Positions 4,413 to 57,206 of a stretch of DNA of 64,000 bases are shown one piece after another. The stretch lies in NCBI GenBank assembly GCA_963677085.2, contig CAXXFH010000006.1, positions 43,862-107,861 of the forward strand, written 5' to 3'. The stretch is from Thermoguttaceae bacterium. GTDB lineage: Bacteria; Planctomycetota; Planctomycetia; Pirellulales; Thermoguttaceae. Made by a program: the position numbers and the translations under genes. The notes under the pieces are model-generated. The model was not told the origin of the DNA and searched no databases. It worked only from the letters and a program-made list of their open reading frames with translations. Positions within the stretch are counted from its first letter, which is position 1. Each line of letters opens with the position of its first letter.

Positions 4413-5558
4413 GTGTTGGTCGTTTACGGGATTGCCGTGTCAGCCGATCTGTCAACACAACTTGCTGGTTGGAACGATGTCCGGCACACGCTCGATGAAA
4501 TTCGGGCGTGCCAAGGCGAATACGATTCGTTCTTCTCCGGCGTGTTCGATCACCTGCAATCCCTTTCGGGCGATCTCTCGCAACACAAGTCGCACTGGGT
4601 GGCCCAACGCCATCAGCAGGCGGCCTCGATGGTTGAGCAGTCGCAGTCGGTCGCCCAGCAGAGCGACGATCGCTGGGAACGATTGCTCGAGGAAACCCGA
4701 TCGCAGCACGCCGAGATGTGCGACGCGCAAAAGGTCGTGCGCCAGCAGGTCGAACGTCTAGCCGCCATCGCCGCCGAGTTGGCCGAGGCCCACCGCCAGG
4801 ACGCCGAGCAGGGCAGGTCCGGCCACGACAGTGCCAACCACGACAGCGCCTCGGAGGAATCGTTGCGGCAATTGCTCGACGAGTTTCGCCAGCAGCAACA
4901 ACAATGGCGCAAGTTACACGAGCAGGCCGCCTCGAACACAACCGAGGCTTTCGGCCAGGAGCTGGCGGAAGTTCGCCGTGAACTCGCCGCCGCGCAACAG
5001 GCGCTACTCGAACGTTTCGAACAGCTTCAAGCGGCCCAGGCCAAAACAACCGGCAAACCGGCCGCCGCTTCGGCGATCGACACCGAACTACGCAAACGTC
5101 TCGACGAAATCCATCGCCTGCAACTCGAGTGGTCGCAGTCGGCTCCCGCAGCCGCGGCCGACGACGATCCCCTACGACAGCAACTTCAGGAGATGACCAC
5201 CCAGCAGGCGGCCTTAGATCAAGAACGGGCGTCGCTGGAAATCGAGTTGGAGTCGGTCCGTGGCCGAGCAGCCGAACTGGCCGAGTCGTTGGCCGATGAG
5301 AAACGCCAAACGCGTCGCCACCAAGAAGAATTCGCCGAAGAACTTAAACGCATGCGCGGGCTGTTGGAACTGATGTCGTATCGGATCAGCGAAACCGCGC
5401 CGGCCCCGGCTACACCCGTCCAAGCAACCCCGACCACGGCAGGCGCCGCTGCGGGTACTACGGCCGACAACGGTGCCGATCCAGTACTCGACTCCGTGAT
5501 GGCGCAGTTCGAGATGCTCCAACGCGATCTGGCCCGACGCCGCAATACCAAGGGATGA
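4413..5558 (+). CDS. Hypothetical Gln/Glu/Ala-rich coiled-coil protein
   Basis: Long ORF with heptad-like charged low-complexity sequence (QQLQEMTTQQAALDQERASLEIELESVRGRAAELAESLADEKRQ). The start is uncertain (GTG at 4413; the first in-frame ATG is about 70 codons in). No recognisable catalytic motif. Confidence 0.5.
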   Translation: MLVVYGIAVSADLSTQLAGWNDVRHTLDEIRACQGEYDSFFSGVFDHLQSLSGDLSQHKSHWVAQRHQQAASMVEQSQSVAQQSDDRWERLLEETRSQHAEMCDAQKVVRQQVERLAAIAAELAEAHRQDAEQGRSGHDSANHDSASEESLRQLLDEFRQQQQQWRKLHEQAASNTTEAFGQELAEVRRELAAAQQALLERFEQLQAAQAKTTGKPAAASAIDTELRKRLDEIHRLQLEWSQSAPAAAADDDPLRQQLQEMTTQQAALDQERASLEIELESVRGRAAELAESLADEKRQTRRHQEEFAEELKRMRGLLELMSYRISETAPAPATPVQATPTTAGAAAGTTADNGADPVLDSVMAQFEMLQRDLARRRNTKG

Positions 5559-5771
5559 CCGGAAACACAACGGGAGAATGCTATAAACAATAGGGTAGCC
5601 GTTCATGGCCGTTGTTTTTTTCGACAACTATTGGGGCCTGCATTGCTTGCGGAACGAGGGCGACCAACGGGAGCCCGGTTCGCGGGGACAAAACGCAACG
5701 AAATGTTCCACAATTAACCTCGGAATCAATAATAGCATAGCGCACCTTCAATTCACACATCGGAGAAGACC

Positions 5772-7139: not shown

Positions 7140-8095
7140 CAAAAAGCATGATTCAACCGCTGGAGTCGTGTCGGCTGATCCAATATGCGGTGCCGGTACC
7201 GTGTCACATTTGCGGGACCGACAACACGCTGGATTCCGAGTTTTGCAACCACTGTTTTGCGCCCATGGCGCTGGCCCATCAATCGTGCGGTCGAAAGACG
7301 CAACCCCAGATGTTGGCCGCGTTGGGAGCCAGCGGCGCGGGGAAAACGGTTTACTTGGGCATGCTGATCGACATGCTTTCGCGGCAGCCCGAACGTATGC
7401 AACTGCTCGCCCGGGGAGCGTTTTCCATCACCCTGCAACAGACCACGCTGGCGGCCTTGTCGCGCTGCGAATTTCCGCAGAAGACCCCCAACGAACCCGA
7501 CCGTTGGAATTGGGTACACTGCCAGATTCGCCGTCGCCAGCAACGTCAACCGTTGGAATTGATTATGCCCGACATGGCCGGCGAGGCCCTGTTGGAAGAG
7601 GTCGACCATCCGCACACGTTCCGTGTCGTGCGATCGTTTCTGCAAAAGTGTACCGGCGCGCTGGTGCTGATCGATACCATGCGGTTGGAGGAATCCTCGC
7701 AGGATCAGGACTATTTCACTCTGAAACTGTTGACCTACCTGAACGAACTGGACAACGACGACTCGGACGACACCCGCTGGCAGAAGTCGCTTTCCTGGAA
7801 GAACCGGCCGGTGGCGTTGGTCTTCAGCAAGGCCGACCACTCCGATCTTTGTTCGGACGATCCGGAGGGCTACGCCAAAACTCAAGCCCCGGCGTTGTGG
7901 CAGTTTTGCCAGGAACGGTTCCACCGCCATCGCTTCTTTGCCGCCAGTGTAGCCGGGACGTGCGTTTACCGCGAGTCGTTGACCGAAGGGCGCATGCAGG
8001 TGCCGCTGCGGATCGAGCCGCAAGGTGTCGTGGAGCCCTTCCAGTGGTTGCTCGAGGAACTCGACTCCCTTGCGGGAAAACGGCCGAAGCGTTGA
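7136..8095 (+). CDS. Zinc-ribbon + P-loop small GTPase-like protein
   Basis: The ATG overlaps the upstream stop (ATGA at 7136-7139). N-terminal CxxC...CxxC (CHICGTDNTLDSEFCNHC). Walker A GASGAGKT (nt 7325-7348), DxxG (MPDMAGE) and an NKxD-like motif (FSKAD). Confidence 0.8.
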   Translation: MTKSMIQPLESCRLIQYAVPVPCHICGTDNTLDSEFCNHCFAPMALAHQSCGRKTQPQMLAALGASGAGKTVYLGMLIDMLSRQPERMQLLARGAFSITLQQTTLAALSRCEFPQKTPNEPDRWNWVHCQIRRRQQRQPLELIMPDMAGEALLEEVDHPHTFRVVRSFLQKCTGALVLIDTMRLEESSQDQDYFTLKLLTYLNELDNDDSDDTRWQKSLSWKNRPVALVFSKADHSDLCSDDPEGYAKTQAPALWQFCQERFHRHRFFAASVAGTCVYRESLTEGRMQVPLRIEPQGVVEPFQWLLEELDSLAGKRPKR

Positions 8096-13719: not shown

Positions 13720-13950
13720 GCCCCAACTCCTCCCTCAATTCCCTGATTCTAACTTCGTAGCCAGGGATGGGTAAAGCGAGAAATCGTGCTCTATCACGGC
13801 GACAACACCGACGGGCTTGCGTCTGTACCGCTTTAGGAAGTAGAACGGCTGGTGGAACCCTCACCAGCCGTTATCGGGAGTCGCCGTTCGTCTTTCAACC
13901 AGATAAACTAGTGCTAAAACACCACGCTACATTTACCCCAGTTCACCAGT

Positions 13951-14601
13951 TCAGTCGACCAGTAAGACGATCAACCGCTTGGGACCGTGAACGCCGAGGA
14001 TCAAGATCTTCTCGATGTCGGCCGTACGACTTGGGCCGGTAATGATCACCGTTTCGCCACGCTGTTGGGCGTCGGCCGCCTGTTTGGCAATCGTTTCCCA
14101 TGCAGCCGGCAGATGTTCGGCCAGGGTTTCGGCCTGGGCCAAAACCACCGAGACCGGCGGCAGATAGCACAACAAGCGTTCTTCGGCCGTGTTGCACGAG
14201 ACGACACAACTGCCCGTATCGGCGAGAAGTTGATCGGCGGAAACCAGGCCGGCGGAAAGCTCGGCCATTGCCTTGGGGTCCCACCCGTCGTGTGCCCAAA
14301 CCACCTGATCCTCGGCCAACCCGGCCACCGCCGTACGGCAAACCGCATTGTCGACCGCACCCAGGCAGCTCCACTCAGACTGCCGAAACAATTCGGCCAG
14401 CCGGTCGGGCACTTCTTCCATCGAGCCGCATCGAACGACCTCGCCCGTAACGGCCGCAAGCTCGGCCAAAAAGCGTTCGACCATCGCTTCCCGCGACGGA
14501 TTGGTCCGCGGCCACACCTCGGGCACGGGCGGCCGTTTCACTTCCGGAGCGTGAGAAACCTCGCTACGAATCCGCGCCAATATTGCTTCGCGACTGTTCA
14601 T
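13951..14601 (-). CDS. lutC: Lactate utilisation protein C (LUD domain)
   Basis: LUD-domain-like sequence (MNSREAILARIRSE..., ...ITGPSRTADIEKILILGVHGPKRL) downstream of lutA and lutB. Confidence 0.8.
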   Translation of the reverse strand: MNSREAILARIRSEVSHAPEVKRPPVPEVWPRTNPSREAMVERFLAELAAVTGEVVRCGSMEEVPDRLAELFRQSEWSCLGAVDNAVCRTAVAGLAEDQVVWAHDGWDPKAMAELSAGLVSADQLLADTGSCVVSCNTAEERLLCYLPPVSVVLAQAETLAEHLPAAWETIAKQAADAQQRGETVIITGPSRTADIEKILILGVHGPKRLIVLLVD

Positions 14602-14655
14602 GATGCGCTTTCTTTTACACCGAATTCAGCCTTTGTCGCTCAACCACTACGGTTC

Positions 14656-14685
14656 TTTTGACAGGATAACAGGATTGACGGGATG
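14656..14685. repeat. Repeat family I arm (TTTTGACAGGATAACAGGATTGACGGGATG)
   Basis: Same arm sequence as at 15161-15180 and 59387-59408. The complementary arm is at 15238-15268. Confidence 0.65.
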
Positions 14686-14710
14686 AAAGAAGAATGGAAT
14701 CCCGCGAATT

Positions 14711-15097
14711 CTACTCCCGCAGCGGTGGATCGAGTATGCGTACCTTGCGTTTCACTTCCACTTTTTCCGGCCCAAAGTTTAGCAGCAGCCCAATATCCAA
14801 ATGAGTCGCAACGAGATAATTGACCAATTGAATCTCGTGGGCGATGGCAAGCTTACGAACGGATTTGAGTTCAACGATGATTCGTTGGTCGACAACAATG
14901 TCTGCTACGAACTCTCCGACCAATTCGTTGTGGTAATATACCTGGATTGGTTTCTGTTCTTCCATCTGCAGCCCGGCGTCGGCCAATTCGATCATCAAGC
15001 ATTTTTCGTACACTGACTCCAGAAACCCAAAACCCATCGTGTTATACACTCGATAAGCACATCCAATAATCTTCTGGGTTGTCTGCTCATGCAACAT
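14711..15097 (-). CDS. GxxExxY protein (PD-(D/E)XK nuclease-fold family)
   Basis: Diagnostic GFGFLESVYEKCL (G-x-x-E-x-x-Y) motif and ...DIVVDQRIIVELKSV... (D...E-x-K) core. Lower GC than its neighbours. Confidence 0.85.
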   Translation of the reverse strand: MLHEQTTQKIIGCAYRVYNTMGFGFLESVYEKCLMIELADAGLQMEEQKPIQVYYHNELVGEFVADIVVDQRIIVELKSVRKLAIAHEIQLVNYLVATHLDIGLLLNFGPEKVEVKRKVRILDPPLRE

Positions 15098-15160
15098 TTC
15101 TTCAACCGTCGCAGCCAGCTTCCGTCAACATTCCAACATGAACCATGCCTACGACATGTT

Positions 15161-15268
15161 TTTTGACAGGACAACAGGATTTCAAGGGTAAACACACCAC
15201 ACATCTCCCGCCAACAAACGTGTGGATCTTACAACACTATCCTGTCCATCTTGTTATCCTGTCAAAAG
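15161..15268. repeat. Repeat family I, complete inverted-repeat unit
   Basis: ttttgacaggacaacaggat ... atcctgtccatcttgttatcctgtcaaaag with an inner ccacac/gtgtgg hairpin. Confidence 0.65.
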
Positions 15269-17681: not shown

Positions 17682-18068
17682 AGGGCGACAATTACCAGAG
17701 GAAAAAGCACTTAAGACCAATCCATCCGTTATAGCGTCCTCCGCGGAGAATCGCCAGTAGGCCGCCGGCCCCCCACTTGCCGGGCGTCGGTTTGTCGCCG
17801 ATACGTCCGAAAAGCCCGACGTTTTGCGACAACCTTAAGGATTGGACTCGGGAGAAAGTGTGTGCCGCTGGCTATGCCCGTGCCGCAGCACCTTGGTTCC
17901 CACGCTGCAGCGTGGGAACGAGGGGATTTTGCGACAGACGTATCATGCCACTACTTGACACCCGCGCTGCGGGGCATGGTATCATGGGGAGACTCAAGAT
18001 CCCATCATTCTGGGTTCTGGGATTTTCGCTCCCATCGTGCTTCCCGCTTCTTGCCGCCTTGACTCTCC

Positions 18069-47330: not shown

Positions 47331-47583
47331 CCTGTTGAAACCGTGTTGGTTTGCTGTTGATGCCGAGGTGGTTACCGACAGCTATCGCCAACCGTCGAGG
47401 ATCTTCACTAACAGCTAACACAATACCGCCAGAGGATCGACAGCACGTCGACAGGTTGTCCACCGTCGGCTACCGCCAAGTAACTTCAGTGTCTGCAACT
47501 ACTTAGCGACATACCACATGCCTAAACCGACAGATTGCTGTCGCTTATTACTACTGCTACTAGTTTAAAGATTGGTTAGAACA

Positions 47584-48702
47584 ATGAAGCTGACCTGCGA
47601 ACGTGAGAAGCTCTTGCACGCGTTTCAAATGGCCGCCAGCGTGGCTCCCACACGGAGCCCCAAGCCCATCTTGCAGAACGTGAAGCTGGAGGTGACGCCT
47701 GAACTCGTCACGTTGACAGGAACGGATTTGGAGATTGGAATTCGTATCGAGGTCGCAGGCTTCGAGATAGAAGCTCCCGGCAGCGTCGTCTTGCCGATCG
47801 CCCGCGTTGGCTCGATCTTACGGGAAAGCACCGACGAGAAAATCCACTTCCATAGCGACGGGACCAAAATCTTCGTGCGAGGCGAGCGAAGCGAGTTCCA
47901 GCTTCCCTCGGAGAATCCCGACGAGTTTCCCAATGTGGAAACCTTTACGGCCGAAACGTATCACGAGATGCCGGCCCGCTTCTTCCGCGAGGTGGTGCGC
48001 CGCACGACTTTCGCCACCGACAACGAAAGCAGCCGTTACGCCTTGGGGGGGGTGCTGTTGGAGCTTGGCGAGTCGACCCTTACGGCCGTGGGAACCGACG
48101 GCCGTCGCTTGGCTCGTCAGGAAGGCCCGGCCACTTCAGTCGGAGGACACGATACTAGCGACAAGACCACGATCATTCCCACGCGGGCTATGCAGTTGAT
48201 TGCTCGGGCACTGGCCGACAACGACGAAAACATTCAGTTGGTCGCTCGAGATAACGACGTGCTGGTGCGCAGCGGTTCGGCAACGATCTACACCCGGCTT
48301 GTCGAAGGGCGGTTTCCCAAGTGGCGTGATGTCTTCCCGCGTGGCGACGGGGTGCAAAAGATCGAGTTGAATGTGGGCGTCTTCCGTTCGGCGGTCAAGC
48401 AGGCCGCGATCGTTACCAGTGAGGATCGCCGTGGGGTGGACTTCACCTTTGGCGACGGGAAGGCAACCCTTGCCGGCCACGGGGCGGAGTTGGGGGAGTC
48501 GCATATCGAATTGCCGATCAGCTACGACGGTCCCGAGGTGGGCATTACGCTCGACCCTCGCTACCTCAGCGATTTTCTCAATGTGCTGGATCCCGAGGGG
48601 ACCTTTGAGTTTCATCTGCGCGATGCCGAGAGCGCCGGTGTGTGTTACACCGACGACGGCTATGGCTACGTGATCATGCCCCTGGCCCGGGATCAGAAGT
48701 AA
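47584..48702 (+). CDS. dnaN: DNA polymerase III beta sliding clamp
   Basis: MKLTCEREKLLHAFQMAASVAPTRSPKPILQNVKL and a three-domain clamp pattern, directly downstream of dnaA. Confidence 0.9.
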   Translation: MKLTCEREKLLHAFQMAASVAPTRSPKPILQNVKLEVTPELVTLTGTDLEIGIRIEVAGFEIEAPGSVVLPIARVGSILRESTDEKIHFHSDGTKIFVRGERSEFQLPSENPDEFPNVETFTAETYHEMPARFFREVVRRTTFATDNESSRYALGGVLLELGESTLTAVGTDGRRLARQEGPATSVGGHDTSDKTTIIPTRAMQLIARALADNDENIQLVARDNDVLVRSGSATIYTRLVEGRFPKWRDVFPRGDGVQKIELNVGVFRSAVKQAAIVTSEDRRGVDFTFGDGKATLAGHGAELGESHIELPISYDGPEVGITLDPRYLSDFLNVLDPEGTFEFHLRDAESAGVCYTDDGYGYVIMPLARDQK

Positions 48703-48725
48703 CTCGAAGAAGTGAGCCAAACTGT

Positions 48726-49028
48726 ATGGCCAAGAGACCTCAAGCGATCGGTGACGTACTTGCCGAACTGATGGCCCGGCGCGGTTTCAACCGGGTCGAG
48801 GCCGCCGAGGTTTTGGAGACGGCCTGGGTGAAAGCAGCCGGGACGTTGGCCGCGAAGTATACCCGGGTGGCCGGGATTCGTCGCGGCAAACTCGAAGTGG
48901 TGGTGGCCAACTCTACTTTGATGCAAGAACTCGTCTTCCAAAAGGCGGCCCTTCGGAAGACGCTGAGCGAAGAACTTCCCGACGAGCAAATTCAAGACCT
49001 GCGATTTCGCGTGGGGAAGATCGATTGA
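48726..49028 (+). CDS. DUF721 (DciA-like) small protein
   Basis: 100 aa. IGDVLAELMARRGF...RGKLEVVVANSTLMQELVFQK is the DUF721 pattern. It sits in the classic position between dnaN and gyrB. Confidence 0.75.
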   Translation: MAKRPQAIGDVLAELMARRGFNRVEAAEVLETAWVKAAGTLAAKYTRVAGIRRGKLEVVVANSTLMQELVFQKAALRKTLSEELPDEQIQDLRFRVGKID

Positions 49029-49131: not shown

Positions 49132-51714
<2,583 letters not shown>

Positions 51715-51754
51715 CGGCTCTCTGCTGCGCCCACCCACCAGAGGGTAAATCCCG

Positions 51755-51802
51755 CCAAGAAACACATCAATCTGTCGGGTGGTGTGTTTCTTGGTCGTTT
51801 TT
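51755..51802 (+). terminator. Rho-independent terminator after gyrB
   Basis: Perfect 12-bp stem ccaagaaacaca / tgtgtttcttgg (51755-51766 / 51783-51794) followed by tcgttttt. Confidence 0.7.
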
Positions 51803-51915
51803 GGAGGCGACCGCCGGCGGTTTGTTTTTTAACGTCGGCAACGATTGGTTGCACTACTCTCCGCGACCTGGGCTGCTCCATAATTGGTGCTCGGAGTGTT
51901 GGTGATGCCAGAGTC

Positions 51916-52584
51916 CTATCCGCCACCGATACTCGAAATCGCGTTCTTCGCCGCCAGACGCGTGTACCCGTGATCCGAATCGGCGGCGGCACGCAGTGCA
52001 TTGCATGCGTCAACAGCGGGCTTGCCAATGCGGCCAAGGCGGAGCGCCGCCCAATTCTGTTCGTGGTCGGTACCGTGGACAAGGATTTCCACAAAAACGT
52101 GAACGGTCTCGGGCAGATAGCGCCCAAACTCTTCCAAGGCTGACGCGGAAGCAAATCGAACGCGAATGTCAGGGTCCGATAATCGCTGGTGAAATAGTCC
52201 GATGACCGTTTCGGGATCTCTTCCCCAATCAGGCAGTACGGGATCGCGTTCGCCCAAGACCTGTTCTACCAACATCGTTGTTGTACAGAGGCGCCAACCA
52301 CATTCCATAAGCAACTCAATAGCCCGTTGGCGATGCGCGGGAGTCTCCGAATTGAGCCGCTCAAGAAGAAATGGCACAGCGGCTGAGTCAAGCCCTTTGA
52401 TCAAGGCGCATGACACGTCTTGAATGGGAGCCTGGGGATCAAAAGTCAACTCAAAGACACGACTCAGCCACGGCAGGGCCGCCTTCCCGTGCGCCTTCAA
52501 ATTACGCACGGCGATCGCTCGATTGAGCCAATCGGTATCGTCCGAAAGCTGCGCGCTAATGTCTTCGGGAGGCTGTAGGTTCAT
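51916..52584 (-). CDS. HEAT/Armadillo-like repeat protein
   Basis: Repeated helical units containing ...RxxAxxAL..G..A.P.L pattern (AVRNLKAHGKAALPWL; RQRAIELLMECG; VRFASASALEEFG; AALRLGRIGKPAV). The start was moved to ATG 52584. Lower GC than the flanks. Confidence 0.55.
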   Translation of the reverse strand: MNLQPPEDISAQLSDDTDWLNRAIAVRNLKAHGKAALPWLSRVFELTFDPQAPIQDVSCALIKGLDSAAVPFLLERLNSETPAHRQRAIELLMECGWRLCTTTMLVEQVLGERDPVLPDWGRDPETVIGLFHQRLSDPDIRVRFASASALEEFGRYLPETVHVFVEILVHGTDHEQNWAALRLGRIGKPAVDACNALRAAADSDHGYTRLAAKNAISSIGGG

Positions 52585-52619
52585 CGTGATGTGTCCAATT
52601 GCAGACCAGCGACGGGGCC

Positions 52620-53129
52620 TTACGTAACCCAGAATCCCAGGTCCTCCAGAGGTTCTCCGCAGACAGGGCATTTTGGAGTGCCCGACTGAAGCTTCTCCGC
52701 AGTGATGACGTTACCCTTGTCCGAACAGATGGGACAAACGAAGTTGTCGAAACCAGTAAACTGGTCGCTGCTCTCCTTTGGCTTGCCCGGCGGCATCGAC
52801 GCTTGATTCTTCTCCCACAAACAAGAGCGCTTCTCATGGTAGAGATATCTGTCTAGCGTGCCCTCAGTCACAGCGTGCTCAACATAGTGCGTAACTCCGC
52901 ATTTTCCACAGGCGAACGCTGTGCGGGAACCATATCCACTGGAAAAATCATGGTAGTGATACCAACCCACGGACATCGTGAAGTTGCACTTCCGACAGAT
53001 TAGATCTTGTGGCATTTTGCTGCTGGTCTCGGACGATCCAGGTTTCGAAAGGGTAGAGATGTCGGAAGGGTTAGGGGTCTCGCGAGTCGTCTTGGCCGAA
53101 GGAAGGCGGTCTTTGGAAACGACTTTCAA
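52620..53129 (-). CDS. Hypothetical double zinc-ribbon protein
   Basis: Four CxxC pairs (CRKC...CGKC; CPIC...CPVC). An alternative start is ATG 53015. It lies 35 bp upstream of the HEAT gene. Confidence 0.5.
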   Translation of the reverse strand: MKVVSKDRLPSAKTTRETPNPSDISTLSKPGSSETSSKMPQDLICRKCNFTMSVGWYHYHDFSSGYGSRTAFACGKCGVTHYVEHAVTEGTLDRYLYHEKRSCLWEKNQASMPPGKPKESSDQFTGFDNFVCPICSDKGNVITAEKLQSGTPKCPVCGEPLEDLGFWVT

Positions 53130-53166
53130 CCCTTGTTTTCCTTGTGTTCAACGCTTGGGTTGCCGA

Positions 53167-53844
53167 CTACGTTCGCGGATCGGTGACGCCCGTATCAAAC
53201 GGGTTCTCTTCGCGCCAACCGAAAGATTCGAACCGTTCATCCCCGGCCATTATGTCATCAATTACATCAGCGACGTAATCAACAGCGTTCCGTACCACCG
53301 TGTCTGATTGCAGCCGCAATAGCTTTCGCCGTGGTTTAATCGCGACGAGCCAACAATAGTCGAGGTAAGTCCATGGATAGATCAACAAGGCAATGGATGT
53401 CGCAGAGTCAATCGTACGAATACTCGCGTACCATCCCCAATCTTCCATCGTCGGATCAGTCTCGTGCGTGATATTCGGAAATGGCAACAACCTTGCGTAG
53501 AGCCAGCCCGTGCAGTCGCCACCGACAAACCATTGACCAATCTGGTCGTCCTCTTGGTGGTAGAGGAACAGTTCGGAACGGAACAACAGAAAGTTACGTG
53601 TTGTGTTGGCCAATGCGCTCGATTCCGAAACGGGTTTCCGGACTTTGTGGGCGAACTCGTTTGTGGGAAGTCTCTGTCTATCACAGGAAGATTGCATTCC
53701 TACGGCCCAACGCGCAGACAGCCAAGTATCGCAATCCGAAGGTTGAGCAACATCTGTTCTGTAAATTCTGTTGACCTTCTTTTCTGTGGTTAAGGAAAGT
53801 GGAGCGGCTTTGCCGCGGTTTTTATTGGCGTTCACGCAGACCAA
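53167..53844 (-). CDS. Hypothetical protein (N-terminus probably overlaps or is created by the IS end; alternative start ATG 53697)
   Basis: Long ORF in the low-GC segment with no recognised motif. The ORF start is only 6 nt from the transposase stop codon. Confidence 0.45.
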   Translation of the reverse strand: MVCVNANKNRGKAAPLSLTTEKKVNRIYRTDVAQPSDCDTWLSARWAVGMQSSCDRQRLPTNEFAHKVRKPVSESSALANTTRNFLLFRSELFLYHQEDDQIGQWFVGGDCTGWLYARLLPFPNITHETDPTMEDWGWYASIRTIDSATSIALLIYPWTYLDYCWLVAIKPRRKLLRLQSDTVVRNAVDYVADVIDDIMAGDERFESFGWREENPFDTGVTDPRT

Positions 53845-55210
53845 GGGGGCTCATTGCCGCCCCCTTGGAACCCGGCTAGCCTTTCTCTGTGTTCCGCTGG
53901 CTGACGCGTTTACCGGCATCGTCAGATAGACTTTGCCCGTCTCCCAGTCGTCGCTGGTTTCGCTGAGGATGGCGCTGACCAGACGCAGCAACGACGCTTC
54001 GTTGGGAAACAGCGTCGCCACGCGAGTCCGACGTTTGATCTCTTGATTGAGCCGTTCCAACGCGTTGGTGGTGCGCAGGCGGCGCTGATGGGTCGCGGGC
54101 AACTCGAAAACCGTGAGGCCTTCGGGGACGTTGGTTTCCATCCAGGCCGACAGATCGGGCGCACGGTCCGCGTATTTTTTCACCAGTTGCGCGAGCAGCC
54201 GATCGGCCTCGTAACGGTCCGGCGCATTGAACACGTTTCGCAGGTCTTGACTGACTTCCAGACGCATCGACACCTTCGGCACGTAGTGCAGCGCGTTCTG
54301 CATGAGGTGGAACTGGCAGCGTTGCCAGGCGATCCCCGGAAAGCCGGCCTTGCGGGCTTGTTTCAGGCCCGCGTGATCGTCGGAGGCGATCAACTGCACG
54401 CCGTGAAGGCCTCGATCGATCAGGCTTTTCAAAAAGTCGCGCCAGTGGACTTCCGCTTCGGATAATGAAACACTGACGCCCAGGACGCTTCGCCGGCCGT
54501 TGTCGAGCACTCCGATCGCAATCAAGACCGCGCAGTCGCGTACGCTGCCGCCGTGGCGCACTTTCTCGTAGCGGGCATCCAAGATAAGGTAGGGCGTTCT
54601 TGCTAATGGTCGATTGCGCCACGCCTCCAGTTCTTCGTCGAGCAGCCCGGCGGCGCGGCTCACTTGGCTGCTGCTCACGTCCAGGCCGCACAGTTCCTTC
54701 GTGATTTCCGCCACCTTTCGCGTGGACACGCCTTGGACGTACATCTCGGCCACGGCCAGCTTCAACGCCCGTTCGCTACGCTCTCCTCGATCGAGCGCGG
54801 AGGGGTAGAACTCGACGTCCCGCGTTTGGGGCACCTTCAGATTCAGGCGTCCGAGGCGACTGTTGACCGTCTTGGGCTTGAAGCCGTTGGCATAGCCCCG
54901 CCGCGACTCGCTGCGCTGGTAGGGCATCGCCCCCAAGGCGTCGGCCCGCTGGAGCTTCATCGCCTCGTTCATCAGGATCTCGATCGCTTCGGCCATTCCG
55001 TCGAACCCGTGCTCGCTGAGCAGTTGGAACAATTCCTCGAAACAGGTAGAATGATCGTCGTGGGCCATGAAGGTCTCCTTTCGCATGAGTGATGTCTTGC
55101 GAAAAGAAGATCAACATTGGCCCACACTTTTTCAAGCCGGCTTCCGAAATCAGGCCATCACGGTAGACTCGATAGTCACTGTCAATTTACAGACGAAAGT
55201 TTACACGACC
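53750..55210 (-). mobile_element. IS256-family insertion sequence (ends approximate)
   Basis: Transposase CDS plus about 100-140 bp of flanks. Only a weak candidate terminal match was found (tctgtaaatt at 53758-53767 versus the rc of 55186-55195), so the ends are not firmly defined. Confidence 0.4.
53851..55068 (-). CDS. IS256-family (Mutator-type) transposase
   Basis: AAGGAG RBS lies 6-7 nt upstream of ATG 55068. Sequence LLSEHGFDGMAEAIEILMNEAMKLQRADALGA...RRGYANGFKPKTVNSRLGRLNLKVPQTRD...MYVQGVSTRKV...DARYEKVR...WQRCQFHLMQN...LERLNQEIKRRT is the canonical IS256 transposase pattern. Confidence 0.9.
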   Translation of the reverse strand: MAHDDHSTCFEELFQLLSEHGFDGMAEAIEILMNEAMKLQRADALGAMPYQRSESRRGYANGFKPKTVNSRLGRLNLKVPQTRDVEFYPSALDRGERSERALKLAVAEMYVQGVSTRKVAEITKELCGLDVSSSQVSRAAGLLDEELEAWRNRPLARTPYLILDARYEKVRHGGSVRDCAVLIAIGVLDNGRRSVLGVSVSLSEAEVHWRDFLKSLIDRGLHGVQLIASDDHAGLKQARKAGFPGIAWQRCQFHLMQNALHYVPKVSMRLEVSQDLRNVFNAPDRYEADRLLAQLVKKYADRAPDLSAWMETNVPEGLTVFELPATHQRRLRTTNALERLNQEIKRRTRVATLFPNEASLLRLVSAILSETSDDWETGKVYLTMPVNASASGTQRKASRVPRGRQ

Positions 55211-55530
55211 AATCCGAATCGCGGCAGTCGGTGACTCGGTTGTATCACCTTGTTCCGCGTGATAGGGATTTTTTACCTGGCGATCATAGGACCGACCGGT
55301 CGGCAGGATTGCCCACGTCGCGGCCGTCGCGGTTCCAAGCGTGTGTGTCGATCCATCGTGATACGAACGTTCGGGAATTTCCCCCAAGTGTACACTCCCG
55401 AGGAGCACACTAAGAGCTCCTCAATTGAAATGCCCACTGAAGTGTCCGTCAAGGCCCCTTGGAAGCGTGGGTGCGCGATTGCAGGTACAACCGCTCCTTT
55501 CGCGCATTCCCACGACGGATAAACCCGCGT

Positions 55531-55598
55531 GTGTGCCACTGGCTCTGCCAGTGCTGGTGACCGTAGCGTTCTCCGCACTGGCAGGGCCAGTGGCACAC
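55531..55598. repeat. Strong 24-bp-stem hairpin
   Basis: gtgtgccactggctctgccagtgc (55531-55554) versus gcactggcagggccagtggcacac (55575-55598): 23/24 complementary with a 20-nt loop. Confidence 0.7.
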
Positions 55599-55835
55599 AA
55601 AGCCGGCCGAAGATACGCTCCCGCAACGTTGACGCGCTACGCCAGAAGACAGCAACTCTCTGTCCCTGACGCCTTCGCCGCTTTGCGAGAACATCCCGTG
55701 AAAACCGAATACCGCGAAATTGGCGGGCGGCTCGTCGCGAACGACGTATCAACCGCCGGCATTCTGCAGCAACAGCGCGATGGGCTGTTCCGGACGGCGC
55801 CGAAAAAACCGAGACCTAACCGTCCCGCCCCGCGC

Positions 55836-57206
55836 TTATTTCGCGCCGGCGGTCAGCAACTGGTGCAGTTCGCCGGTCTTCAGCGTGCGCGTTACGCGGA
55901 AGATGCCCGCGGGGCCAGTGGGCATGCCGGCGTAGATGAAGATGTGTTGCACGCCCCGCTTGGCGTCGATCACCGCTCCGCCGGGATGCATGCCATCGGC
56001 CGTGGCCTTGGCGCAGATGCCGTGGCGGCGCAGCAGGGTGCCTTTGAATCGCCATGTGGCGCTGCCTTCGTCCAACTCGGCTGGGGCGATACTCCAGAGG
56101 TTCAATGTTTGGCTGTCGCGGTCCAGTTCGTGGCCCGGGCCGCCGCCGTTGCGGTTGGTCACCACGGCTTCGATCCGGCCCGACATCGGGTTTATGCAAA
56201 GCGAGGTGGTATCTTGCGTCCAAGGGCCGTGGTATGCACCGCCGCCGATGTCTCGGGTGTCGGAACAACGGATGTTCGTCAACTGCGGGGTTAACGGCCG
56301 TCGGCCGTTGCGCGAGAACAACTGCACGTAGCGCCACGTTTTTCGCTCAGGTTCGAAGCTCGCGGCACCGTGACATCGGGCCAACACGAGTAACCGACCG
56401 TCGAACGTCAGTAGCGTGGGTTCGATCGGCGTGGCGAAATCGGGCAACTGCTGCATTTGCTCCTGCCACGTACGGCCCCCGTCGCGCGAGTAACGAAGCC
56501 AGAGTTCCGGCGGGATGTAGGGCGTGTGGTCCGGGTTGCGCCGCTTCTGGCTCGCGTCGTGGCCGGCGCACAGCAAGCCGTACTCGGGATGTTCGATCAG
56601 GCGCGGCCCGTGGTTCGTCCTTGGCCCCTTGAGTTGACCTTCGCCAAAGGCGCCGGGCAAGTGTTGCCACGTGACGCCTTCGTCGGACGAGCGGAACACA
56701 CCGTAGCTGGTGCCCACGACCACGGTGCCATCGGTTGTCGTGCCGATCGAGTTACCGAAGCCTCGGCGGCAACCCGGGGTCTGCGTTTCGACCAGATCGC
56801 CGAGGCTTAGGGGCTTCGACCAGGTGTGGCCCCCGTCGGTCGATCGCACGACGACGGCGTTGCTGGTGAATTTATCGCGTGGTGCCTTGTCTCCCCAGTG
56901 CTGTGGGATGCGGTAGAAGACAACAATGATCGCCCGCCTGGCCATCGTGGCCACCGGCCAACCGAAATGGTCGTTGTTGCCCAGCAGCGTGTCGCCCTCG
57001 GGCAAGACGACCGGGGCGATCTCCAGCAGATCGTTGGCCTTGGCAAGCAGGGCTTGGGTGGGGGCGTCTAGCGCCAGGATCTTTTTGGCTGTCGTCGACG
57101 TTGTTGGGGAAGTTGACGGCATGGCATCATCAGCCCCACGACTTACGGCTGAGACGGCAATGGTGGAAATCAAGAGCACTGCGACCGAAAGCATGCGGCA
57201 GTACAT
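55836..57206 (-). CDS. Secreted BNR-repeat (sialidase-fold) protein
   Basis: Signal peptide MYCRMLSVAVLLISTIAVSAVS. BNR motifs STDGGHTW, SSDEGVTW and SRDGGRTW. The start was moved to ATG 57206. Confidence 0.8.
   Translation of the reverse strand: MYCRMLSVAVLLISTIAVSAVSRGADDAMPSTSPTTSTTAKKILALDAPTQALLAKANDLLEIAPVVLPEGDTLLGNNDHFGWPVATMARRAIIVVFYRIPQHWGDKAPRDKFTSNAVVVRSTDGGHTWSKPLSLGDLVETQTPGCRRGFGNSIGTTTDGTVVVGTSYGVFRSSDEGVTWQHLPGAFGEGQLKGPRTNHGPRLIEHPEYGLLCAGHDASQKRRNPDHTPYIPPELWLRYSRDGGRTWQEQMQQLPDFATPIEPTLLTFDGRLLVLARCHGAASFEPERKTWRYVQLFSRNGRRPLTPQLTNIRCSDTRDIGGGAYHGPWTQDTTSLCINPMSGRIEAVVTNRNGGGPGHELDRDSQTLNLWSIAPAELDEGSATWRFKGTLLRRHGICAKATADGMHPGGAVIDAKRGVQHIFIYAGMPTGPAGIFRVTRTLKTGELHQLLTAGAK

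Follow-up and report, generated by a model that had tools for sequence, protein, structure and literature searches.

Organization of the locus downstream of gyrB

We analysed a 64,000-nucleotide stretch of the genome of a Thermoguttaceae bacterium (assembly GCA_963677085.2, contig CAXXFH010000006.1), hereafter the window, in which three small genes and an insertion sequence (IS) of the IS256 family lie downstream of gyrB. The three genes, which we call ORF1, ORF2 and ORF3 (ORF, open reading frame) and together the trio, are co-directional on the minus strand, are followed by the transposase gene and are convergent with gyrB, as the original prediction, made from the sequence alone, had described them. 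The same prediction had placed the locus close to the origin of replication, a position borne out by dnaA, dnaN, a DUF721-like gene and gyrB, which are found in this order on the plus strand upstream (Table 1). We consider it likely that the region is a mosaic, strain-specific accessory islet with a later IS256 insertion. The islet would measure about 2.2 kb without the IS, spanning roughly 51.8-55.5 kb, and would hold three unrelated small genes, each from its own family with its own distribution; a complete IS256 element later transposed into the leader of these genes, as a simple insertion and not as their carrier.

Table 1. Coordinates of the islet, the insertion sequence and the neighbouring genes, numbered from the first nucleotide of the window
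Feature	Position	Strand	Description
ORF1	53167-53613	-	About 148 aa from TTG 53613; alternative ATG 53697 gives 176 aa
ORF2	52620-53015	-	131 aa, two zinc ribbons; starts MPQDL
ORF3	51916-52584	-	222-aa HEAT-repeat protein, last gene of the trio
Complete IS256-family insertion sequence	53741-55210	-	1470 bp; inverted repeats, target duplication and transposase
Transposase gene	53851-55086, or to 55068	-	411 aa, or 405 aa
Right inverted repeat	53741-53767		27 nt, imperfect
Left inverted repeat	55184-55210		27 nt, imperfect
Target-site duplication, right copy	53733-53740		8 bp, AATCCGAA on the + strand; directly flanks the inverted repeat
Target-site duplication, left copy	55211-55218		8 bp, AATCCGAA; identical to the right copy
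Former leader/promoter region of the trio	55219-55500	-	Now cut off from the trio by the IS
Terminator-like hairpin and T-run	51809-51822	+	Between the convergent gyrB and ORF3; consensus scan only
dnaA	46034-47212	+	
dnaN	47572-48702	+	
gyrB	49168-51714	+	

Composition and apparent absence from a close relative

When examining the GC content along the window, we find that the trio is its lowest-GC 1.5-kb stretch (53.2% vs 59.6 ± 1.9%). The drop after gyrB that the original prediction had reported is therefore real, whereas its figure of about 50% is not, the GC content being 52-57% by segment (51.6-56.8% across the three genes). The GC content at third codon positions (GC3) is 0.585-0.611 in the trio (0.59 in ORF3), compared with about 0.75 otherwise, the plausible neighbouring genes of the window having values of about 0.69-0.84. 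On the far side of the IS, GC content is 56.6% at 55211-55500 and 63.3% at 55501-55835, and the lower value suggests that 55219-55500 is to be counted as part of the islet. A pseudogene remnant was sought at 55219-55835, but this interval contains no convincing ORF and resembles none of the related loci in tblastx; 55219-55500 also yielded neither an Rfam match nor homology to related loci.

Sequence and cluster look-ups identified a close relative, on a contig of 8,756,912 bp, in which DnaN and the DUF721-like protein are identical, GyrB shares 831 of 836 residues (99.4%), and the BNR-like flanking protein falls into the same 90% cluster (≥90% identical). ORF1, ORF2, ORF3 and the transposase, on the other hand, each form a singleton protein cluster present on one contig only, and the best non-self matches of ORF1 (71% identical), ORF2 (64% identical) and ORF3 (65% identical) do not lie on the relative's contig. 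Judging by protein-cluster membership, the trio and the transposase appear to be without counterpart in the relative. The earlier suggestion of a horizontally acquired accessory islet is thus supported by atypical GC content and GC3, by singleton clusters, and by a relative without the trio despite near-identical flanks. Like this locus, generic strain-specific islets of orphan genes (ORFans) are low in GC3, are missing from a close relative, have an IS nearby and lack conserved synteny; we find no difference between the two, and this is the default description of the locus.

A complete IS256 element within the trio's leader

The transposase beside the trio had been assigned to the IS256 family, and this assignment was confirmed by matches to NCBIfam transpos_IS256 (NF033543; 361.7 bits with a cut-off of 150, E = 3.2e-108) and Pfam Transposase_mut (PF00872; 359 bits, E = 3.1e-107). 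The inverted repeats are 70% complementary in an inverted-repeat search, and the terminal-repeat pattern has a single occurrence in the window, with 0 expected by chance. Members of the IS256 family normally carry imperfect terminal inverted repeats, generate a target duplication of 8-9 bp and measure about 1.3-1.5 kb; with its DDE Mutator-type transposase, its length, its 27-nt inverted repeats and its 8-bp duplication, the present element agrees with all of these norms, and it is a new isoform or member of the family with nothing unusual about it.

The IS had been thought to abut the first gene of the trio and to stop where the transposase gene does. The right inverted repeat instead marks its end, 127 nt upstream of TTG 53613, the more probable start of ORF1, or 43 nt upstream if translation begins at ATG 53697. 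Upon removing the IS together with one repeat copy in silico, we obtained a continuous leader in which the ORF1 frame runs into a stop within a few codons on the upstream side of the target site; the IS therefore split no gene, its insertion point being in the trio's leader. The perfect 8-bp duplication flanks the IS alone, pointing to a simple insertion into pre-existing sequence. Furthermore, the GC3 of the IS is native-like (0.774), and the contrast with the trio (about 0.59-0.61) argues that the two have different histories.

Within the minus-strand interval between the transposase stop and ORF1 (53851-53613), a consensus scan revealed no terminator-like site. Because the transposase gene and the trio share one direction and no such terminator precedes ORF1, the trio may still be co-transcribed, most likely by read-through from the transposase gene or from a promoter at the end of the IS, outward-facing or hybrid. 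A sigma-70 consensus scan found no outward promoter above threshold at the IS end; by eye, a weak and non-significant TTAACC-17 nt-CAGAAT arrangement can be seen near 53790-53762 on the minus strand.

The three genes belong to separate families

We fetched 29 loci (about 24 distinct, designated by L numbers) around homologues of each gene from isolate genomes, metagenome-assembled genomes and metagenomes. In tblastn searches of these loci with all three proteins, no two of the families were found in the same locus, and the similarity to related loci, at the level of DNA or of translated sequence, stops at each coding-region border. ORF1, ORF2 and ORF3 align with their homologues over their full length and the genes appear intact. 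The statement that the proteins lack an obvious enzymatic motif was upheld, with no enzymatic or toxin domain recognized by Pfam, NCBIfam or fold search.

The HEAT-like repeats noticed in ORF3 were substantiated by Pfam matches above the cut-offs, to HEAT_2 (PF13646; 57.8 bits with a cut-off of 27.7, E = 1.3e-15) and HEAT (PF02985; 34.1 bits with a cut-off of 23.5, E = 2e-8). We found 18 homologues, several of them named Gimesia, with 43-65% identity and about 99% coverage, and the homology begins at ATG 52584. In PADLOC only the generic HEAT-ARM_XIII model was matched (2.6e-5 over 37 residues). The closest homologues (L025-L028, representing two distinct neighbourhoods, some of them in Gimesia) are paired with a conserved divergent 548-aa protein without a Pfam match, and in a further locus (L029) the HEAT gene shares 8 nt with the 3' end of a cation-efflux (CDF) gene, within a CzcB/ACR_tran/CorA cluster.

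For ORF2, the four CxxC pairs that had been pointed out (residues 7/10, 36/39, 94/97 and 116/119) are invariant across the family, from which two Zn sites are predicted. The 169-aa version beginning at TTG 53129 is probably over-extended, with homologues aligning from its residue 39. Each of the six close homologues has 130-131 aa and starts with MP[QTK]D, at the equivalent of MPQDL in ORF2, and we therefore adopt the 131-aa gene model, which leaves a spacer of 151 nt between ORF1 and ORF2. The spacers of 35-37 bp proposed for the trio accordingly stand for ORF2-ORF3 (35 nt) and fall for ORF1-ORF2, where about 37 had been expected. The conserved 131-aa domain is beta-rich and carries the family motifs GWYHYH, THYVEH and DRYLYH; its AlphaFold model is likewise a beta-rich domain (predicted local distance difference test, pLDDT, 89; predicted template modelling score, pTM, 0.83), for which a fold search against the PDB found no match (best E 2.5). 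No Pfam, NCBIfam or PADLOC model matched ORF2 above its cut-off, with weak sub-threshold matches to many Zn_ribbon models.

An exhaustive profile search expanded the ORF2 superfamily to 164 clusters at 50% identity, with two main architectures of about 131-145 aa and about 210-225 aa. Across the superfamily the N- and C-terminal ribbons are kept and the middle varies, as in the ORF2-like genes of L015, L017 and L018; in 24 of the 150 relatives scanned, a domain resembling the C-terminal part of ribosomal L7/L12 (PF00542, best 4e-22) is located between the ribbons, and no enzymatic or toxin domain was found fused in any of the 150. ORF2 thus resembles the Zn_ribbon clans and DZR in possessing two CxxC...CxxC ribbons, but differs from them in that its domain is covered by no Pfam model or PDB fold and in the L7/L12-like insert of some of its relatives. 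In L002 and L024, homologues of ORF2 follow unrelated small genes. In L016 an ORF2-like gene (5004-5369 and 7958-8068) is seemingly split by about 2.6 kb of inserted sequence, with the N-terminal ribbon and the start of the L12-like part in one half and the C-terminal ribbon in the other.

ORF1 had been read as a 225-aa protein starting at 53844, only 6 nt away from the stop of the transposase, with an N-terminus derived from the IS. The first 35 codons of this version lie inside the IS and no homologue reaches that far, and we regard the extension as an ORF-calling artefact that reads out of the IS end. Among 26 homologues, those with a source name are mostly from Planctomycetota and most are 132-165 aa long. 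They reach no further upstream than about residue 29-33 of the 176-aa version, the conserved core (18 invariant columns) begins with RNFLLF at residue 34 of that version, and DNA similarity to related loci does not continue beyond 53612. We favour the TTG start at 53613 because the resulting 148-aa product matches the usual length of the family. The predicted model of ORF1 is confident (pLDDT 85) and shows a small alpha+beta domain that combines two long helices with a sheet of six strands. Searches of Pfam, NCBIfam and PADLOC gave no match, and a fold search against the PDB returned nothing significant, the best match being the AMPK alpha C-terminal domain (E 0.016, TMq 0.34), with BamC-N and START-like matches weaker still and non-significant; the viral BFVD models gave nothing significant either. 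When the PDB was searched with sequence profiles of ORF1 and ORF2, no match fell below E 0.38.

The genomic contexts of ORF1 homologues are diverse. In L001 a homologue stands by itself, flanked by a TPR gene and a methyltransferase; others lie beside topA (L004) and MarR (L021), and relatives in L020, L005 and L008 are located in co-directional arrays of small genes without Pfam matches, with about 14-15 such genes in L020. In L020 (1175-11963) the homologue is part of a run of 15 co-directional genes of 57-258 aa among 19 small called genes, of which one has a precomputed Pfam match, and no inter-gene repeats were detected there. The L008 array contains a fusion of 234 aa (4890-5594) in which an ORF1-like domain precedes a C-terminal CxxC...CxxC zinc ribbon, a 125-aa ORF downstream of the fusion ends in a similar ribbon, and the array also includes DMP19-like (PF14300, 2e-15) and thioredoxin-like genes.

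ORF1 and ORF2 are members of small uncharacterised, mostly planctomycete families. Neither matched any of 72,556 plasmids and 50,697 phages in tblastn searches, and scans of IMG/VR contained no relatives of ORF1 or ORF2.

Possible functions and alternative explanations

By analogy with heterogeneous polyimmunity arrays, we tentatively propose, as a possible rather than a probable reading, that ORF1, ORF2 and ORF3 act separately and non-enzymatically as orphan immunity-like binding proteins, each of which would neutralise an incoming polymorphic toxin. The predicted binders would be the HEAT solenoid of ORF3, the two-zinc-ribbon beta protein of ORF2 and the small alpha+beta domain of ORF1. HEAT repeats and SUKH are among the immunity classes described by Zhang et al. 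2012 (PMC3482391), including in planctomycetes, and the same study characterises heterogeneous polyimmunity loci as tandem groups of mutually unrelated immunity proteins that are same-orientation, closely spaced and strain-variable, often beside recombinases. The trio resembles such loci in several respects: its genes are in tandem, in the same orientation and close-set (spacers of 151 and 35 nt), they encode unrelated small non-enzymatic proteins with no toxin gene among them, and they lie beside a recombinase-type gene. Its content also varies between strains, the trio being missing from the protein set of the relative whose GyrB is 99.4% identical. ORF3 falls into the HEAT class listed for planctomycetes, and relatives of ORF2 are found beside SUKH genes on two independent contigs. 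In L002, a SMI1_KNR4/SUKH-1 gene (above the Pfam cut-off) is followed by one 96-aa gene and then by the ORF2 homologue, with a Fic gene downstream on the opposite strand; in L016, the disrupted ORF2-like gene is part of a long co-directional array with two SUKH-1 genes (above the Pfam cut-off) and a Cys_rich_CPCC gene. Additionally, one of the small-gene arrays around ORF1 relatives (L008) includes a DMP19-like gene. The trio differs from polyimmunity loci in that it comprises three genes only and has no known cognate toxin, in that ORF1 and ORF2 fall into no described Imm family, and in that the adjacent recombinase is the transposase of a separately arrived IS.

Several observations weigh against this proposal. 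No curated Imm or immunity family, SUKH and SuFu included, and no PADLOC model matched the trio beyond the generic HEAT, and no toxin or secretion-system gene was identified next to it. Three genes are fewer than the 'four or more' needed for the extended polyimmunity loci of Zhang et al. 2012 (PMC3482391). ORF3 homologues are found in unrelated contexts, next to the divergent 548-aa gene or overlapping the cation-efflux gene, and a number of ORF1 homologues stand alone amid housekeeping genes. ORF1 and ORF2 are tied to an immunity superfamily by association with SUKH in L002 and L016 only, that is, in 2 of about 3 informative ORF2 contexts.

It is also conceivable, albeit rather unlikely, that the three are unrelated accessory orphan genes from the flexible gene pool of planctomycetes, without a role in conflict (serving, for example, metal handling or regulation) and gathered at a permissive site beside gyrB. 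The overlap of one ORF3 homologue with a CDF gene inside the CzcB/ACR_tran/CorA cluster fits such a role, as do the two predicted Zn sites of ORF2, the frequent occurrence of ORF1 homologues alone among housekeeping genes and the lack of matches to immunity and defence families. The metal context is, however, confined to one locus, the four other ORF3 loci (two distinct neighbourhoods) being different, and neither the recurring adjacency of SUKH to ORF2 relatives nor the variable small-gene arrays around ORF1 relatives is in line with this explanation.

A more far-reaching version of the immunity proposal, which we rate as improbable, would make the ORF2 superfamily an undescribed group with a new two-zinc-ribbon fold, whose members, perhaps together with the ORF1 family, would be new immunity or decoy proteins in polymorphic-toxin conflicts. 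In the L12-like variants, mimicry of the ribosomal stalk would serve to trap toxins directed against translation factors or the stalk, and the trio would represent a miniature planctomycete polyimmunity locus.

The original prediction had put forward the trio as a compact defence, toxin-immunity or addiction module. A dedicated module of three cooperating components, be it for anti-phage defence, toxin immunity or addiction, now seems very improbable and is largely refuted by the missing synteny, as 0 of the 29 loci hold two of the three families and homologues are never co-localised in this sample. The co-directional genes, the 35-nt spacing of ORF2 and ORF3 and the foreign, strain-specific character of the region would suit a module, and so would the weak HEAT-ARM_XIII match of ORF3; the L008 fusion very weakly suggests that ORF1 and zinc-ribbon proteins are connected, but its ribbon is of the generic DZR type and has no tblastn match to ORF2. 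The true ORF1-ORF2 spacer of 151 nt speaks against a module. When checking for a defence system, PADLOC-DB v2 was blank for ORF1, ORF2 and the transposase and returned the generic HEAT alone for ORF3, and neither a conserved adjacent pair nor a toxin-like or enzymatic domain, by which a toxin-antitoxin system would be recognized, was found by synteny, Pfam, NCBIfam or fold searches.

That the IS256 element brought the trio as cargo, in a composite or transduced unit, or created the ORF1 N-terminus and promoter, making a single mobile unit of both, is hardly credible: the two are adjacent, co-directional and both missing from the relative, and IS256-family elements form outward or hybrid promoters, but the perfect duplication surrounds the IS alone, the window contains one copy of the IS only, GC3 differs between the IS and the trio, and the IS-derived N-terminus of ORF1 is conserved in no homologue.

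Other features of the region

We report several further observations on the surroundings of the islet. The dnaA-dnaN-gyrB cluster is without recF. A small gene lies between dnaN and gyrB (48642-49028, or 48726-49028 if it starts at ATG and encodes 100 aa); the close relative has an identical copy, and no NCBIfam match was obtained at 1e-5. A near-perfect long palindrome is located at 55531-55598, in the spacer that separates the BNR-like gene from the IS, with arms GTGTGCCACTGGCyCTGCCAGTGC and a folding energy of -71.9 kcal/mol (z = -5.0); one copy of the arm, with 3 mismatches, is present at 17860-17883, where it has no matching partner arm. An Rfam scan of 51500-56000 produced sub-threshold chance matches only, and we attribute the spurious miRNA-type matches among them to this palindrome. 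At the borders of the islet we detected no att sites, direct repeats or attC-like palindromes, and, with regard to an integron cassette array, no recurring inverted repeats were seen between genes of the window or in the L020 array, in a search that did not use the attC covariance model and was not specifically directed at intI. The second-lowest GC patch of the window lies at approximately 13751-15250 (54.2% over 1.5 kb).

Implications

The locus itself is ordinary, being typical of strain-specific islets into which an IS has inserted, and the three-gene system first proposed is not a conserved unit. The gene models are corrected by the removal of two artefactual N-termini, in ORF1 and ORF2, one of which was made by the IS, and the clean IS256 insertion in the leader of an operon could be used for testing IS-driven expression in a planctomycete. 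Overall, the analysis flags two uncharacterised small-protein families that occur in variable small-gene arrays, some of them beside SUKH genes, of which the dual-zinc-ribbon family of ORF2 is the more notable, with a confident model and no structural match, and both families are reasonable candidates for mining new immunity or binding-protein families.

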